A stretch of 64,000 nt of DNA, taken from positions 1,432-65,431 of the forward strand of contig CANIEV010000002.1 in the NCBI GenBank assembly GCA_947466535.1, read 5' to 3'. The notes beneath the pieces were generated by a model that was not told the DNA's origin, made no database searches, and saw only the letters and a list, made by a program, of their open reading frames with translations. The number at the start of each line of letters is the position of its first letter. The stretch's first letter is position 1. The position numbers were made by a program, and so were the translations under genes. This stretch comes from Betaproteobacteria bacterium (GTDB taxonomy: Bacteria; Pseudomonadota; Gammaproteobacteria; Burkholderiales; SG8-39). This document shows, in pieces, positions 6,573 to 44,172 of this stretch.

Positions 6573-8213
6573 ATGCCCGCCACCTCTGGCACCAATAAAA
6601 AAATCATCGAAACGCCTGTGCTGATCATCGGCGCCGGTCCGGTCGGCATGGCGCTCGCGCTGGATCTTGCCTGGCGCGGCATCGGCTGCATGCTGATCGA
6701 GCGCACCAGCGGCGAGATCCGGCATTCGAAGATCGGGCTGATCTCCGCGCGGACGATGGAAATCTGCCGGCGTCTCGGCATCGCGCAGCGGGTGCGCGAC
6801 TGCGGCTTTCCGATGGACCTGCCGCTCAATCAGGTGTTCTGCACCAGCTTGGCGGGTTATCCGCTGTCGGTGATCGAGTTTCCCAGCCTGCGCGAGGAAA
6901 CGATGCCGGCCATCGGGCCGGAGAAAAAGCACCGCTGCCCGCAACTCTGGTTCAACCCGATTCTCGGTCGTGCGGTGAGCGAGCAGTCGGGCATCGACGC
7001 GCGGTACCACTGCGAACTCGAATCGTTTGATCAAGGCGAGAATGGTGTCAGGGCAAAGGTGCGCGATCTCAAGGGCGGCGACGGCTTCGAGGTATCCGCG
7101 CAATACATGGTGGCCTGCGACGGCGCGGGCAGTTCGGTGCGGCAGGCACTTGGCATCGTGCTCGAGGGCGATCCGGCGCTGAGTTATTCGACCGCCATCT
7201 ACCTGCGCTCGCCCGGCCTCCCCAAGCGCCACGACAAGGGACCGGCGGAGCGGTATCTGTTCATCGGCCCCGAAGGCAACTGGGGACATCTCACCGTGGT
7301 GGACGGGCAGGACTACTGGCGCATGACGGTGGTGGGATCGAAGGAGAAAGTGGAAGCGGCGGATTTCGACGCGGCCGCCTGGGTGCGTCGCGGGCTCGGT
7401 TCGGACGACATCCCGTTCGAGATCGACTCGGTGATGCCGTGGCGGCGCAGCCGGCTGCTGGCAAACAGTTACGGCAAGGGGCGGGTGTTCATCGCGGGGG
7501 ATGCGGCGCACGTGATGGCACCCAACGGCGGCTACGGCATGAACACCGGCATCACCGATATCGACAACCTCGGATGGAAACTGGAGGCGACACTGGGCGG
7601 CTGGGCGGGAGCGAAGCTGCTTGCGAGCTACGACGCCGAGCGGCGTCCGGTGGGACAGCGAATGGTGGATTCGGCCGCAGGCAACTTCGCGCTCAAGAAA
7701 AAGCCGATCGACAGTGAAGGCGTTCTCGATGCGACGCCGGAGGGCGATGCAAAGCGGATCGAAGTTGGCGAGAAGCTGAAGGCAAGCATCAAGCGCCACT
7801 ACGAGACGCTCGGCGCCGACATGGGTCATCGGTATGAAGGCTCACCGGTGATCGTGCCGGATGGCACGCCGCAGACACCGGACGATCAGGCGGTGTATGT
7901 GCCGACCGCGCGGCCGGGGCATCGCTCGCCGCACGGCTGGCTTGCGGACGGTCGTTCGACGCTGGATCTGTTCGGCCGCGGATTCGCACTACTTCAGTTT
8001 GGCAGCGAGGCGAAGGGTGCGGATGCAATTCTTGCGGCGGCGAAATCGCGCGGTGTGCCTGTTACGCTGACTCGGCTCGATGATTCCGCGCTCGGCGCGC
8101 TCTATGAACGCAAGCTCGCGCTGGTGCGGCCCGACGGGCATGTGGCCTGGCGCGGCGATGCGGCGCCGGCGGATGCGGGCGGCCTGATCGATACGGTGCG
8201 CGGGGCGGCCTGA
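6573..8213 (+). CDS. FAD-dependent aromatic-ring monooxygenase (PheA/TfdB/MhpA-like)
   Basis: VLIIGAGPVGMALALDL dinucleotide fold, CDGAGSSVR and GDAAHVMAPNGGYGMNTG motifs, about 550 aa. The ATG at 6573 has AGGAAA upstream. The ATG at 6546 is also in frame but lacks an RBS. Confidence 0.85.
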   Translation: MPATSGTNKKIIETPVLIIGAGPVGMALALDLAWRGIGCMLIERTSGEIRHSKIGLISARTMEICRRLGIAQRVRDCGFPMDLPLNQVFCTSLAGYPLSVIEFPSLREETMPAIGPEKKHRCPQLWFNPILGRAVSEQSGIDARYHCELESFDQGENGVRAKVRDLKGGDGFEVSAQYMVACDGAGSSVRQALGIVLEGDPALSYSTAIYLRSPGLPKRHDKGPAERYLFIGPEGNWGHLTVVDGQDYWRMTVVGSKEKVEAADFDAAAWVRRGLGSDDIPFEIDSVMPWRRSRLLANSYGKGRVFIAGDAAHVMAPNGGYGMNTGITDIDNLGWKLEATLGGWAGAKLLASYDAERRPVGQRMVDSAAGNFALKKKPIDSEGVLDATPEGDAKRIEVGEKLKASIKRHYETLGADMGHRYEGSPVIVPDGTPQTPDDQAVYVPTARPGHRSPHGWLADGRSTLDLFGRGFALLQFGSEAKGADAILAAAKSRGVPVTLTRLDDSALGALYERKLALVRPDGHVAWRGDAAPADAGGLIDTVRGAA

Positions 8214-11950: not shown

Positions 11951-12132
11951 CGGGATTCCTTGTTGTTTGCGATACGTACCGGCACGAACGGGATGCATGT
12001 GAAAAATGCATGGGCGCACGGATCGGTCCGGACGGGTGCAGTCGGTGGTGTGACGCGGTTTGTACCGGGTGTGCGTCGCAACGCGGAGGCGTGCGGACGC
12101 AACTACATTGAACTCCTTCTCCTGCCGCTAGC

Positions 12133-13563
12133 TTAGAGGGGCGGGCCCGATGCGTCAAAACGCTGATCTGCGGATGCAAGATCGGCGAAGACATGCTGTT
12201 CTTCGCTGCCCGGATCACGCCTGAGAAAGGCAGCAAGGATGCGGAAGTTCTCGAGTTCGAAACGGCGCTCGCGGGTGAGGGCGAGTTCGCGGGCGGCGGA
12301 TTCGGTTTCGGCTCGTCCGAGAAAACACCAGCGATCGAACACCAGCCATTCATCGAACCCCTCACGGAATTCGCGTACCGCGAGCGGGCCGTCGTGCGGC
12401 CACGCCTGAAAGCGACGGGGCGCGAGGGTGTCGAACAGGCGAGCGCGGTGGGAGTCTGCGGATTCGCCGCCGCAGCAGGCGCCGCGGCAGCGGCGGATCT
12501 GGTAGCCGAAGCAGGGACCGGATCCGCGCTCCAGGCCGAGCGCCTTGGCGCAGAGTTCGTGCTCGCGGACGAGATCGATCAGGTGCATCCGTGCCGACTG
12601 ACGCGACGAGTACACCCCGTAGGAGTCGGCGAGTTCCTCTAGTGTGGAGATTGCCGCGAGGGGAAATTTCGGCCGGCCGCGGTCGAGGTCGAGCATCAAC
12701 GCGACCGCGTTGTCGCGCCGGCGCAGCCTCGCGTTGTGCGCAGGCATGCGCTCGCGCACCCATTCGGCCTCGAGAAGCAGGGCGCCGAGCTCACCCGCGG
12801 TCTCGTGCCATTCGAGGTCCTCGATCTCCTGCGAGATGCGCGCCTCGCGGTCGCGTCGATAGTCGCCGGAGAAATGCGCCGCCACGCGGTCGCGAAGATC
12901 GAGGCTTTTGCCGATGTACACCGGATGGCCGCCGGCGCCAAGGAAGACATAGACGCCGGGCGCGTGCGGCACCGCGGCCAGTCGCTCCGGCGGCAGGTTC
13001 TTCGGCAGGCTCGGCTGGCGCAGCAGGCGCCGCACAGCGGCATCGATTTCATCCTGCGGCAACTCGCGGTACAGCAGTTCGATGAAGCGCAGGAGGATGC
13101 GTGCGTCACCGCTTGCGCGATGGCGGTCGGCCTGGTCAAGCCGGTGCCGCGCGACGATCGCATCCAGCCCGTGCCCGCTTCGCTCCGGATAGAGCGCTCT
13201 GGACAACCGTGCGGTGCAAACTGTCTTTGCGGAAAAACTGCGGCCGGTGCGTTCGAATTCGGCCTTGAGGAAGCCGTAGTCGAAGCGCACGTTGTGGGCG
13301 ACGAGGACCCGTCCTTCAAGTAGTTCGGCAAGTTGGTCGGCGATCGCATCGAATCCCGGCGCGTCCTTCACCATCGAATCGCTGATGCCGGTGAGACCGC
13401 GGATCTCCGGTGGTATCGGGATGCCCGGATTGATCAGGCTGGACCATTCACCGACAAGGCGACCGTCATCGATCTCGAGCACGGCGATTTCCGTGACCCG
13501 GTCGGTGCGCGCCGACATGCCGGTGGTCTCCAGATCGACGATCGCAAGGCGGGGCGCAAGCAT
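12133..13563 (-). CDS. DnaQ-like 3'-5' exonuclease fused to a GIY-YIG (UvrC/Cho-like) nuclease domain
   Basis: The N-terminus shows the DEDDh motifs IVDLETTG, LVAHNVRFDYGFL and HRASGDA. The central part shows the GIY-YIG motifs PGVYVFLG, HPVYIGKS and GELGALLLEAEW. Confidence 0.85.
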   Translation of the reverse strand: MLAPRLAIVDLETTGMSARTDRVTEIAVLEIDDGRLVGEWSSLINPGIPIPPEIRGLTGISDSMVKDAPGFDAIADQLAELLEGRVLVAHNVRFDYGFLKAEFERTGRSFSAKTVCTARLSRALYPERSGHGLDAIVARHRLDQADRHRASGDARILLRFIELLYRELPQDEIDAAVRRLLRQPSLPKNLPPERLAAVPHAPGVYVFLGAGGHPVYIGKSLDLRDRVAAHFSGDYRRDREARISQEIEDLEWHETAGELGALLLEAEWVRERMPAHNARLRRRDNAVALMLDLDRGRPKFPLAAISTLEELADSYGVYSSRQSARMHLIDLVREHELCAKALGLERGSGPCFGYQIRRCRGACCGGESADSHRARLFDTLAPRRFQAWPHDGPLAVREFREGFDEWLVFDRWCFLGRAETESAARELALTRERRFELENFRILAAFLRRDPGSEEQHVFADLASADQRFDASGPPL

Positions 13564-13590
13564 GCGAGGGATCTTACCTGCCGGACAAAA

Positions 13591-13733
13591 GACAACAGGC
13601 CCGAGTTACTACAACGGTCCGGCAATAGACAACGGGCCCGAGCTGTTACGACGGGCCCGGGAAAAGACAACGGGCCCGAGAGCTATTACCACGGGGCCCG
13701 AAAAGACAACGGGCCCCGAGAGGGGCCCGTTGC
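13591..13733. repeat. tandem array of GGGCCC-containing repeats (about 19-bp sub-repeat, about 38-bp hairpin unit)
   Basis: There are seven direct copies of (G/T)AC(A/G/C)ACGG(G)CCCG starting at 13591, 13610, 13628, 13647, 13666, 13687 and 13705. One inverted copy lies at 13722..13732. Adjacent copies can pair as hairpins: 13633-13640/13652-13659, 13671-13677/13694-13700 and 13707-13717/13722-13732. Confidence 0.9.
13707..13732 (-). terminator. intrinsic terminator downstream of the phasin gene
   Basis: Perfect 11-bp stem CAACGGGCCCC/GGGGCCCGTTG with loop GAGA. On the minus strand it is followed by TCTTTTC. It starts about 50 nt after the phasin stop codon. Confidence 0.65.
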
Positions 13734-13780
13734 TCACACCGACAGAAGGAGGAGGAGTACTGAGGGTGTGAAAGCTTGTA

Positions 13781-14317
13781 TTACGCAGCCTTTTTCTTGA
13801 CTTCCTTGGTGACGCTGGTGGCGGCGCTGAAATTCGCTTCCGCGATTTCGGTCGCCTGCTTGGTCACCTTGGTGAGGCTGTCGTAGGCCGAGTTGGCCGC
13901 GGCGAGCGCGGACTTGACCGCGGCAACCGCCACATCGGAGCCGGCCGGCGCGTTCTTCGCAACCTTGTCCAGCATGCTGACGACGTTCTTGTTGTACTCG
14001 GTGGCCTGGCCTTCGAACAGCTTGGTGACTTCGGCCTGGGCCTGGTTCGCCACGTCATAGACACTGCGCGAGTAGGCGAGGGCTTTTTCGATCGTCGGCT
14101 GGGCGACAGCGGCGTTCAGATTCACCAGTTCCTGCACATCCTTGACGCCAAGCAGCGCCTTGGTGTGGCCGATGCTCTCTTCGAAGATGGCCTTGGTGGT
14201 GTTGAAGTTCAGCGCGGAAAGACGCTCGAACGCGGCGAACTGTGCGTGCGCCAGCGCGATGACGGCTTCCATGCCTGCTTTGTTCGATGCCACAACTTGC
14301 TCGGGGGTTACGTACAT
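13781..14317 (-). CDS. phaP: phasin family protein (PHA granule-associated)
   Basis: MYVTPEQVVASNKAGMEAVIALAHAQFAAFERLSALNFNTTKA is a typical betaproteobacterial phasin N-terminus, and the protein is Ala-rich and helical. AAGGAGA RBS precedes the ATG at 14317. Confidence 0.85.
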   Translation of the reverse strand: MYVTPEQVVASNKAGMEAVIALAHAQFAAFERLSALNFNTTKAIFEESIGHTKALLGVKDVQELVNLNAAVAQPTIEKALAYSRSVYDVANQAQAEVTKLFEGQATEYNKNVVSMLDKVAKNAPAGSDVAVAAVKSALAAANSAYDSLTKVTKQATEIAEANFSAATSVTKEVKKKAA

Positions 14318-14390
14318 GTCAAAGTCTCCTTTGGGTTTCCCGCGGCAAGGCGGGGAAATAAGTGATCTCATCAGCGGTTTGGCGACTTAT

Positions 14391-14403
14391 GTTGCGTCGC
14401 AAC
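14391..14403. promoter_or_regulatory. TGC-rich palindrome GTTGCGTCGCAAC just downstream of the phasin -10; candidate PhaR-type operator
   Basis: A 13-bp perfect dyad lies 8 nt from the -10 element. A second TGC-rich segment, TGCGCTGCAGCA (14450..14461), lies just upstream of the -35. Confidence 0.3.
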
Positions 14404-14410
14404 AAAACCA

Positions 14411-14438
14411 ATTCTACTGGAAAATCAGGCGCTGTCAA
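14411..14438 (-). promoter_or_regulatory. sigma70-type promoter of the phasin gene
   Basis: The minus strand reads TTGACA, a 16-nt spacer, then TAGAAT. This lies about 95 nt upstream of the phasin ATG. Confidence 0.6.
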
Positions 14439-14644
14439 GAAATTCTTCTGCGCTGCAGCAAAAATTAACGGGTCGCGTAAAACCGCTCTGAAAACAAGGG
14501 TTTGTGTCGGGCAGGTGTGCCGGCATAGTGCGTGGTCACGGCGAAAACGCCGAATTTTGTTGCATCGCCCTTTTTTGGGCGCACCGCCGGATTCAATGTA
14601 TTGAAATCAAACACTTTAGTGGCACTCTACTGTCGCCTTTCGGG

Positions 14645-15556
14645 ATGCGGCCGGTGAACGCGAGTGCATCCGCGCCCGGATTCTGGATCCGCGCGACTCC
14701 GCTCCTGTTCGTGTTCTTCTGGAGCACCGGATTCATCGCGGCGAAGGCGGGCCTCCTGCACGCCGGGCCGATGACTTTCCTGTTGTTGCGCTTCGCACTG
14801 GTGGTGGCCCTGATGCTCCCGATCACGCTCGCTTTCCGTGCGCCCTGGCCATCGACGCCGATGCAGTGGGTGCATATCGCGGTGGTGGGCTTGCTGGTGC
14901 AGGGCGGATACCTCGGCGGCGTGTTCTCAGCGATCCACGCGGGCCTTGCGGCCGGGCTTGCAGCGCTCATCTGCGGTCTCCAGCCGATACTCACCGCCTT
15001 CATCGCCGCACCGGTGCTCGGCGAGCGCGTGACGCGACGCCAGTGGACCGGTCTGCTCCTCGGATTGGCGGGCGTTGCCCTGGTGCTTGAGCAGAAACTG
15101 GATTTTTCAGGCGCCTCGGTATTCAGCGTGGGCCTGGTGCTGGTGGCGCTTGTTTCGATTACCGTCGGGACGGTCTATCAAAAGCGGTTCTGCCCGACCT
15201 TCGACCTTCGCAGCGGCTCGGTGATCCAGTTCGTCGCTGCCGCGTTCCTGCTGCTGCCGTTCGCTTTGCTTACCGAGACCCTGGCAGTGGACTGGACGCC
15301 GTCATTCGTGATCGCGCTCTTGCACCTCGTGCTGGTGCTCTCGATCGTGTCGATTTCGTTGCTTGCGCTGATCATCCGTCGCGGTGCGGCAACACAGGTG
15401 GCGAGCCTGTTCTATCTCACGCCACCTGTGACCGCAGTCGAGGCGTGGCTTCTTTTCGACGAGACGCTCGGCGGCTGGGCACTTGCGGGCATGGTGCTCG
15501 CGGTGGCGGGTGTCGCGCTCGTCGTCAATCAGGGTGGACAGCGCACGGGACGGTAA
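14645..15556 (+). CDS. DMT superfamily (EamA-like) transporter
   Basis: The protein is a multi-helix hydrophobic type with two EamA-like halves. The ATG at 14645 was chosen so that the protein starts just before the first TM helix. Confidence 0.8.
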   Translation: MRPVNASASAPGFWIRATPLLFVFFWSTGFIAAKAGLLHAGPMTFLLLRFALVVALMLPITLAFRAPWPSTPMQWVHIAVVGLLVQGGYLGGVFSAIHAGLAAGLAALICGLQPILTAFIAAPVLGERVTRRQWTGLLLGLAGVALVLEQKLDFSGASVFSVGLVLVALVSITVGTVYQKRFCPTFDLRSGSVIQFVAAAFLLLPFALLTETLAVDWTPSFVIALLHLVLVLSIVSISLLALIIRRGAATQVASLFYLTPPVTAVEAWLLFDETLGGWALAGMVLAVAGVALVVNQGGQRTGR

Positions 15557-43546: not shown

Positions 43547-43638
43547 GAACCGTTCAATACTGTCCAGTCGGGTTTGGGTGGCGGATCGTTTGCTTCGGGT
43601 CATTTGCCGTCAACCTGGAACCGGATTGCGCGTTATTT

Positions 43639-43686
43639 GAACTGACCGGATGGAAATCCGGTGAACTGACCGGATGGAAATCCGGT
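43639..43686. repeat. perfect tandem duplication of the 24-bp unit GAACTGACCGGATGGAAATCCGGT
   Basis: Two identical units lie at 43639..43662 and 43663..43686. Each contains the dyad ACCGGA-N6-TCCGGT. The repeat ends 33 nt before the sORF-1 ATG. Confidence 0.95.
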
Positions 43687-43719: not shown

Positions 43720-43839
43720 ATGAACAAGATTCTTGCGATCGTCCTGGCTTCGATTTTTGCCGCTGTAAGCTTCAGCGCCGTTGCGGCGGACAAAAAAGAC
43801 GAAAAGAAACACGAAAAGAAAGACGAAAAGAAGAAGTAA
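43720..43839 (+). CDS. 39-aa small ORF: signal peptide plus Lys/Glu/Asp peptide ([39 protein letters not shown])
   Basis: GAGAGGAAAA RBS 3-4 nt before the ATG, a hydrophobic Sec-like leader with AVA-A, and its own terminator. A paralog lies at 44053. The ORF is absent from the ORF track because it is under 60 aa. Confidence 0.6.
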
Positions 43840-44052: not shown

Positions 44053-44172
44053 ATGAACAAGATCGTCGCCGTTATCCTTGCCGCCATGTTCGCTGCCGTC
44101 AGCTTCAACGCGGTTGCCGCCGACAAGAAAGATGAAAAGAAAGCGGAAAAGAAGGACGAAAAGAAGAAGTAA
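44053..44172 (+). CDS. 39-aa small ORF, paralog of sORF-1 ([39 protein letters not shown])
   Basis: GAGAGGGAA RBS and its own terminator. 32 of 39 residues are identical to sORF-1, with 14 silent against 7 replacement codon differences. Confidence 0.6.

Follow-up and report, generated by a model that had tools for sequence, protein, structure and literature searches.

Intrinsic terminators can stand in tandem, the classic case being T1-T2 of rrnB. The locus described here is an array of four hairpin units, U1 to U4 counted from the phasin stop codon, which lies between a phasin gene and a nuclease gene in a stretch of 64,000 nucleotides from a Betaproteobacteria bacterium (contig CANIEV010000002.1; this whole stretch is called the window, and positions are counted from its first letter). 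With a probability of roughly 60%, the array is the Rho-independent terminator of the phasin gene, amplified in place and acting as a stack of fail-safe terminators that insulate the nuclease gene.

The WebGeSTer DB counts 100,364 U-shaped terminators among 977,173 'best' terminators and defines the tandem U-shaped form as more than one hairpin, spaced by less than 50 nt (PMC3013805); clusters of hairpins have also been put forward as a common unit of termination (Gupta and Pal 2021, PMC8355165). The hairpins of the window stand 9-13 nt apart and so fall under the WebGeSTer definition. Like U-shaped and cluster terminators, the array has several sense hairpins past a stop codon, each trailed by a U-rich stretch, and the first hairpin is strong and canonical. 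Unlike them, its hairpins appear to be paralogous copies of the right arm and U-tract of the first terminator, made by recent tandem duplication and present in 1, 4 or 5 copies among close relatives, whereas terminator catalogues disregard the common origin of hairpins. The array is best classed as a tandem terminator, a catalogued class and not a new kind, and it is the paralogy of its hairpins and the preserved copy states that go beyond the catalogues. An earlier reading of the region, made from the sequence alone and called below the sequence-only reading, had stated that it knew of no described element laid out in this way, which was too strong in view of the catalogued tandem terminators and hairpin clusters (PMC3013805, PMC8355165). 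A literature search on tandemly duplicated terminators found nothing specific.

Other described systems share some of these traits. Bacterial intergenic minisatellites (variable-number tandem repeats) resemble the array in its 38-40-nt period, its copy-number variation between close lineages, its concerted evolution and its decayed edge, but here the unit is itself a functional-looking signal, an arm plus a U-tract, and each self-complementary copy yields a terminator-like structure. Repetitive extragenic palindromic (REP) sequences and bacterial interspersed mosaic elements (BIMEs) also form GC-rich palindromic clusters between genes and can block exonucleases or attenuate transcription. REPs, however, are dispersed, numerous, usually alternating in BIMEs and associated with RAYT transposases, whereas the array occupies a single locus in 64 kb, is made of direct copies and is locally derived. 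The small RNAs (sRNAs) of the Cuckoo, alpha-r14 and CcsR groups are likewise modular sets of adjacent hairpins, and a hairpin just ahead of U1 has an anti-Shine-Dalgarno loop of their CCUCCUCC type. The Cuckoo/ar14 family consists of 2-4 adjacent hairpins, each with CCUCCUCCC in its loop (PMC4615179), whereas here only the hairpin at 13734-13771 has CCUCCUCCC and the repeated units are without the motif. Iterons are direct repeats of about 17-22 bp beside an origin or a rep gene; the array has a repeat of about 19 bp, and its neighbours include neither rep nor par.

Anatomy of the array

The whole array spans 13566-13735, with a period of 37-38 nt and a 19-nt sub-period. Tandem Repeats Finder places it at 13581-13716 (period 37-38, 3.4-3.6 copies, 81-82% matches, score 147-151), with 6.8 copies of the 19-nt sub-period. 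A separate repeat search found four in-register 37-nt copies, the first at 13566, with 13566-13602 scored as a 65% copy of the unit, as well as a perfect 11-nt inverted repeat with 4 nt between its arms (13707-13717 / 13722-13732). The motif ACAACGGGCCCG, allowing up to two mismatches, starts on the plus strand at 13592, 13611, 13629, 13648, 13667 and 13706 and is inverted at 13722-13733; a seventh direct copy lies at about 13687 with a 1-nt insertion. The sequence-only reading had described four tandem units of about 38 nt on the minus strand over a 19-bp motif with seven direct copies and one inverted, the first unit having a perfect 11-bp stem and a tetraloop, the second and third stems of 7-8 bp, and the fourth being degenerate. 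The two repeat programs, the inverted repeat, the folds of the units and the ACAACGGGCCCG search bear out this description throughout.

Each 38-nt unit divides into a pair of related 19-nt halves: CGGGCCCG-TTGTCTTTT, a right arm with its tail, and CGGGCC(C)CG-TNGT followed by variable sequence, a left arm with its loop. With a stem core, CGGGCCCG, that equals its own reverse complement, direct copies are able to pair with one another. All units are direct repeats and point in the sense direction of both flanking genes. On the sense strand the array folds at -93.5 kcal/mol (z = -5.4 against shuffles), and the single hairpins have energies of -26 (U1), -16.4 (U2), -17.7 (U3) and -5.6 kcal/mol (U4). 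The U1 stem, CAACGGGCCCC / GGGGCCCGUUG, has 11-12 pairs, and U1 is taken to be the phasin gene's primary intrinsic terminator. The stems of U2 and U3 have 7-8 GC pairs and close loops of 16 and 11 nt, respectively. Every tail from U2 to U4, whether UUGUCUUUU or UUGUCUAUU, contains 6-7 U in nine positions (7/9 in U2), and UCUUUU follows the 11-bp stem of U1 (Table 1).

Table 1. Features of the phasin-nuclease junction, in window positions.
Feature	Positions	Strand	Description
Phasin promoter-like site	14411-14438	minus	sigma-70-like, TTGACA-16-TAGAAT, 11/12 matches
Phasin gene	13781-14317	minus	178 amino acids; profile match to Phasin_2, E = 2.7e-25; stop codon 13781-13783
Anti-Shine-Dalgarno-like hairpin	13734-13771	minus	stem TCACACC/GGTGTGA, loop UACUCCUCCUCCUU; context of the array, not part of it
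U1	13701-13732	minus	arms 13722-13732 and 13707-13717; loop UCUC; tail UCUUUU 13701-13706
U2	13662-13700	minus	left arm CGGGCCC 13694-13700; right arm GGGCCCG 13671-13677; tail UUGUCUUUU 13662-13670
U3	13624-13659	minus	arms CGGGCCCG 13652-13659 and 13633-13640; tail UUGUCUAUU 13624-13632
U4, degenerate unit	13587-13622	minus	arms CCGGACCG and CGGGCCUG; tail UUGUCUUUU 13587-13595
Pre-start segment	13564-13586	minus	GUCCGGCAGG-UAAGAU-CCCUCGC, then nuclease ATG at 13563
Nuclease gene	12133-13563	minus	476 amino acids; DnaQ-like exonuclease fused to Cho/UvrC-like nuclease (domain matches)

The array is confined to this one place in the window and is not an artefact of assembly, since the intergenic sequence recurs identically in five independent metagenome contigs and near-identically in a sixth. 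Within the 64 kb, all matches to ACAACGGGCCCG with no more than one mismatch lie inside the array, as do all four matches to the 17-mer CGGGCCCGTTGTCTTTT with up to three mismatches (0.33 expected; 0/100 shuffles reached four), and six of the window's 18 GGGCCC sites are crowded into the 95 nt from 13634 to 13728. A search for unit copies outside the array, allowing three mismatches in 17 or one in 12, found none in the 64 kb.

Relatives and origin of the units

Related loci were gathered by exact-protein look-ups of nuclease and phasin homologues. The nearest, L134, is 98.3% identical in nucleotides over 2.3 kb and carries four units, with two T>C changes in the tail of U3. L129 (phasin 96% identical in amino acids) has five units and L005 (nuclease 89%) has four. 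The other relatives carry U1 only: L006 (nuclease 79%), where an unrelated 15-nt tandem repeat stands right after U1; L007 and L135 (nuclease 77%); and L130-L133 (phasin 90%), in which a different gene and not the nuclease follows. U1 is conserved in all relatives. In the consensus fold one of its stem positions is A-U three times, G.U once and G-C once across lineages, and because this pair covaries, U1 is read as a genuine conserved RNA hairpin. Since the remaining lineages have U1 alone, the array is dated by comparison to the clade of the window, L129 and L005, later than U1 and later than the adjacency of phasin and nuclease genes.

The sequence TTGTCTTTTGT marks the ancestral junction: it follows U1 in L006 and L007, and it follows the last unit, U4, in the window, as in-place tandem duplication predicts. 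The array very probably originated by amplification, on the spot, of the right arm and U-tract of the phasin terminator. In the ancestor, the phasin stop codon would have been followed by the anti-Shine-Dalgarno hairpin and then by a single terminator, U1. CGGGCCCG-TTGTCTTTT and some of the following spacer would then have been duplicated head to tail, in steps of about 19 nt at first and of about 38-40 nt later, the likely route being replication slippage or unequal recombination. As the CGGGCCCG core is palindromic, each direct duplication would create a new GC hairpin with a copy of the U-tract right after it.

Units have since turned over fast. The nuclease genes of L129 and L005 are 95.7% identical, yet their arrays differ in the number and types of units: L129 has two unit copies with the loop GTCGTATTGGCGCAT and one with GTCGTGACATCGAT, and L005 has two of the GTCGTGACATCGAT type. 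Units resemble their neighbours in the same lineage more than their counterparts in other lineages, which indicates either duplication and loss or gene conversion. The last unit has decayed in L005 and L129 as it has in the window. Derivation of the loops from the -10/start region of the nuclease gene is hinted at and no more, the signal being marginal (p = 0.06 for window U2, p = 0.012 for the L129 units, none for the others).

Two further repeats resemble this arrangement in part. The 15-nt repeat of L006, TTTTGTACCGTCGGC, occupies 158-206 in about three copies directly past the single terminator, arose independently and folds into nothing significant (z = 0.1); tandem duplication seems to come about readily just past the phasin terminator. 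In an unrelated planctomycete, a Pirellulaceae metagenome-assembled genome (L093, CAZHTX010000238.1), a 17-nt tandem array of CGGGCCCGCTGTCTATT lies at about 7350-7450 on the minus strand, with 4-5 copies in which a palindromic arm and a T-rich tail are repeated head to tail; it may be an independent instance of the same process.

The region is also variable in its genes. In L130-L133 a convergent MoCF_biosynth gene comes directly after the phasin gene, and in the lineage of the window the nuclease gene and a block with TctC-family, aldolase and hydroxylase genes (about 9.7 kb in L001) separate the two. By this comparison, the stretch past the phasin terminator is one where gene content changes.

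Stacked terminators as the probable reading, and the alternatives

Constraint within the units is uneven. Between the best-matching units of the window and L129, arms and tails are identical at 44 of 46 positions and loops at 22 of 33 (Fisher p = 0.0012); with the identity of 0.69 that the nuclease gene shows at its third codon positions, 44/46 would have P ~ 9e-6. The arms and tail of window U2 are identical to those of both L129 U2a and L005 U2 (23/23), and 10-11 of the 16-17 loop positions agree. The substitutions observed in left arms are C>T, which keep a G.U pair (L005 U3, L129 U2b). The loops for their part appear to have drifted towards more pairing and are largely self-complementary in L129, whose units overall reach 11-13 pairs and -20 to -24 kcal/mol: U2a and U2b are 13-pair tetraloop hairpins of -24.2 and -21.2 kcal/mol, followed by 7/9 U, and U3 has 11 pairs, as does U3 of L005. 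Because arms and tails are kept, left-arm changes are compatible with wobble pairing and loops are gaining complementarity, the constraint points to a single-stranded hairpin and not to a double-stranded DNA site. Pairs were counted from individual folds, since a MAFFT alignment of the units misplaced a gap in U3.

On the nascent transcript U1 would fold first and should stop most polymerases. Those that pass it would transcribe a lone left arm and then the right arm and U-tract that complete U2, and likewise for U3. An alternative register, with the U-tract in the loop, has a similar energy (-16.5 kcal/mol), but the order in which the segments emerge would favour the terminator pairings. The array would in this way insulate the DnaQ-Cho nuclease gene, whose putative promoter abuts it, from the strong phasin promoter, and any read-through mRNA, having no Shine-Dalgarno sequence for the nuclease, would give poor nuclease translation. 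The chance that U2 and U3 terminate measurably is put at slightly better than even. That the array is maintained by selection, and not by homogenisation with U1, is put forward only tentatively, as the less probable of the two states. Among the possibilities raised by the sequence-only reading, a multi-stage terminator or insulator fits the comparative evidence best, given the covariation in U1, the kept arms and U-tracts set against drifting loops, and the full-strength units of L129, which have the form of canonical terminators.

Several observations weigh against fail-safe termination. The loops of window U2 and U3 (16 and 11 nt, with weak internal pairing) exceed the roughly 3-8 nt of typical terminators, whereas U1, L129 U2a and L129 U2b have loops of 4 nt. 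A simple terminator scan flags no unit, U1 included, owing to its tail rule and its gapless-stem rule, and RNAfold energies were used in its place. Relatives manage with a single terminator, and the conservation of right arms and tails could stem from conversion by U1.

Other observations of this kind are also what a neutral minisatellite would produce. On that account, DNA next to the stable GC hairpin that closes a heavily transcribed gene is prone to slippage, and gene conversion or unequal crossing-over homogenises the copies with U1, with no selectable effect. Within one small clade the same position has expanded twice independently, once by 38-40-nt units and once by the 15-nt non-hairpin repeat of L006, which suggests a mutational hotspot and not selection for termination. 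Units are most like their neighbours, and copy number shifts between sisters that are 96% identical. The edge unit is decayed in all three array lineages, and such decay, with rapid gain and loss, would be ordinary behaviour for a minisatellite; the two substitutions in the U3 tail of L134 leave a weaker U-tract. Conversion by U1, however, does not explain why the loops of the L129 units and of L005 U3 gained complementary bases to give stems of 11-13 pairs, and the limitation of left-arm changes to wobble-compatible C>T also speaks against neutrality. Hairpins of -16 to -24 kcal/mol with U-rich tracts would moreover be expected, by the rules for terminators, to stop some polymerases whatever their selective history. 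The purely neutral account is rather unlikely.

Some other role in RNA is improbable. The hairpins of a read-through 3' untranslated region (3'UTR) could stabilise phasin mRNA against 3' exonucleases, REP hairpins being known mRNA stabilisers, or could yield longer isoforms of a 3'UTR-derived sRNA in which the U-rich linkers serve as Hfq or RNase E sites. The idea draws on the conserved hairpin directly upstream of U1, predicted in the consensus fold at 13734-13771. All six lineages have this hairpin between phasin stop codon and terminator, and its loop, CUCCUCCUCCUU, is rich in C and U and anti-Shine-Dalgarno-like. At its gathering thresholds Rfam reports nothing in the region; in E-value mode it gives sub-threshold matches only, to ar14 (33.1 bits, E = 3.6e-4), covering the anti-Shine-Dalgarno hairpin, U1 and U2, and to CcsR1 (16 bits against a gathering score of 65.3). 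The ar14 score is well under the gathering score of 58.8, however, the loops of U2-U4 are without CCUCCUCC, the defining motif of Cuckoo/ar14 modules (PMC4615179), and most lineages that keep the anti-Shine-Dalgarno hairpin are without the array. That hairpin is in its own right a candidate for a phasin-linked regulatory RNA module derived from the 3'UTR. A phasin-linked riboregulator has precedent, since the trans-acting sRNA MmgR of Sinorhizobium (alpha-r8 family) lowers phasin protein levels (PMC8401924). In the distant relative L143 the equivalent hairpin has a different stem, CGCGG/CCGCG, with the loop AUCUCCUCCUCCUCC, and is followed by a different terminator.

An iteron-like array, also raised by the sequence-only reading, found no positive support and is very improbable. 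A DNA-binding protein would here recognise the 12-nt direct repeat CGGGCCCGTNGT at a spacing of about 19 bp and regulate the nuclease gene, just ahead of whose start the seven direct copies stand, 18-20 bp apart. GTNGT, beside the left arm, is kept from lineage to lineage in the loop-side half-units without being needed by the hairpin; this is explained, however, by the common origin of the half-units from right arm and tail. The 64 kb contain no further copy, the neighbours include no gene for replication or partition, and relatives with the same nuclease gene do without the array. A spacing of 19 bp amounts to 1.8 helical turns, so that the sites would not lie on the same face of the DNA. 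C>T changes in the arms preserve wobble pairing in RNA yet spoil the DNA palindrome, and a double-stranded site offers no rationale for loop halves that gain complementarity.

The sequence-only reading had also proposed a local expansion of a REP-like element and a motif search for a dispersed REP family. The expansion is indeed local, but the sequence copied is the terminator of the phasin gene itself, relatives have a single hairpin, and within 64 kb the unit is confined to the array. Scanning the genomes of 185,579 species for the pattern CGGGCCCN{4,20}GGGCCCGYTGTCT returned at least 120 stretches, from Actinomycetota to Planctomycetota, every one a lone, ordinary terminator hairpin and each from a different genome; the sole array-like match among those listed was the unrelated 17-nt repeat of L093. 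Because this generic hairpin-plus-tail pattern recurs across many phyla, U1 can be assigned to a very common type of terminator. A metagenome scan with the specific unit pattern matched one unrelated single terminator (L136), which is a weak test, as the collection apparently does not hold short contigs such as the JGI contig L134, with its two exact matches. A REP/BIME-like dispersed element that landed beside the phasin terminator and then expanded is barely credible, for beyond the superficial resemblance of short GC-rich palindromic units clustered between genes there is no other copy in 64 kb even at three mismatches in 17, the units are all direct and not alternating, they copy the right arm and tail of U1 itself with the ancestral junction kept past the last copy, and neither the matches listed from the genome scan (at least 120 genomes, one ordinary hairpin each, none with several) nor the single unrelated metagenome match points to a family.

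The phasin-nuclease junction and its significance

The neighbours of the array are phasin, nuclease, EamA and TctC genes, and no transposase family is found among the called neighbours. PhaP phasins are typically among the most highly expressed genes during polyhydroxybutyrate (PHB) storage. The near-consensus promoter that the sequence-only reading had assigned to the phasin gene holds up: the promoter-like site of Table 1 is the only one of its kind within 12000-15000 and is also present in L129. Identity to relatives at third codon positions is 0.87 in the phasin gene against 0.69 in the adjacent nuclease gene, which is consistent with strong synonymous constraint on the codons of a highly expressed gene. 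For the nuclease, which had been described as a DnaQ/GIY-YIG protein, the DnaQ-like part is well matched (RNase_T, E = 2.9e-32), and UvrC_M and Cho_C are present as precomputed matches, but GIY-YIG itself scores only 19.5 bits, under the Pfam cut-off of 22.6.

Ahead of the nuclease ATG the sequence contains no Shine-Dalgarno motif, and a -10-like TAAGAT (13571-13576) stands 7 nt before it. A TAnnAT hexamer (TAAGAT, TAATAT or TAGAAT) is found 6-7 nt before the ATG in the window, L005, L129, L006 and L007. Because a Shine-Dalgarno sequence is missing and the hexamer lies so close to the ATG, the nuclease mRNA is probably leaderless. TTGTCT precedes TAAGAT at a spacing of 13 nt, and inspection by eye of the region upstream of the nuclease gene found no convincing LexA box or sigma-70 -35 element.

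Elsewhere in the window, at 43720-43839 and 44053-44172 on the plus strand, are two paralogous 39-codon genes, each with a signal-peptide-like N-terminus, a lysine/glutamate-rich tail and then its own hairpin-plus-T-tract terminator. Just ahead of the first, at 43638-43686 on the plus strand, is a perfect 24-nt tandem repeat, TGAACTGACCGGATGGAAATCCGG, in two copies, each containing the palindrome CCGGAT...ATCCGG.

The phasin array provides an example of how a tandem terminator may originate, with one-, four- and five-unit states captured among relatives. It bears on the annotation of terminators in GC-rich genomes and on the insulation of a weak downstream promoter from a very strong gene. A more speculative extension, and an unlikely one, is that of a self-propagating terminator: slippage of the palindromic right arm and U-tract would spawn working terminators, of which selection would keep two to four. 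These would form an insulator, tunable by copy number, between the leaderless nuclease promoter and one of the strongest promoters of the cell. If this were true, the gain and loss of units would tune read-through from strain to strain, and with it how strongly a potentially mutagenic nuclease is expressed.

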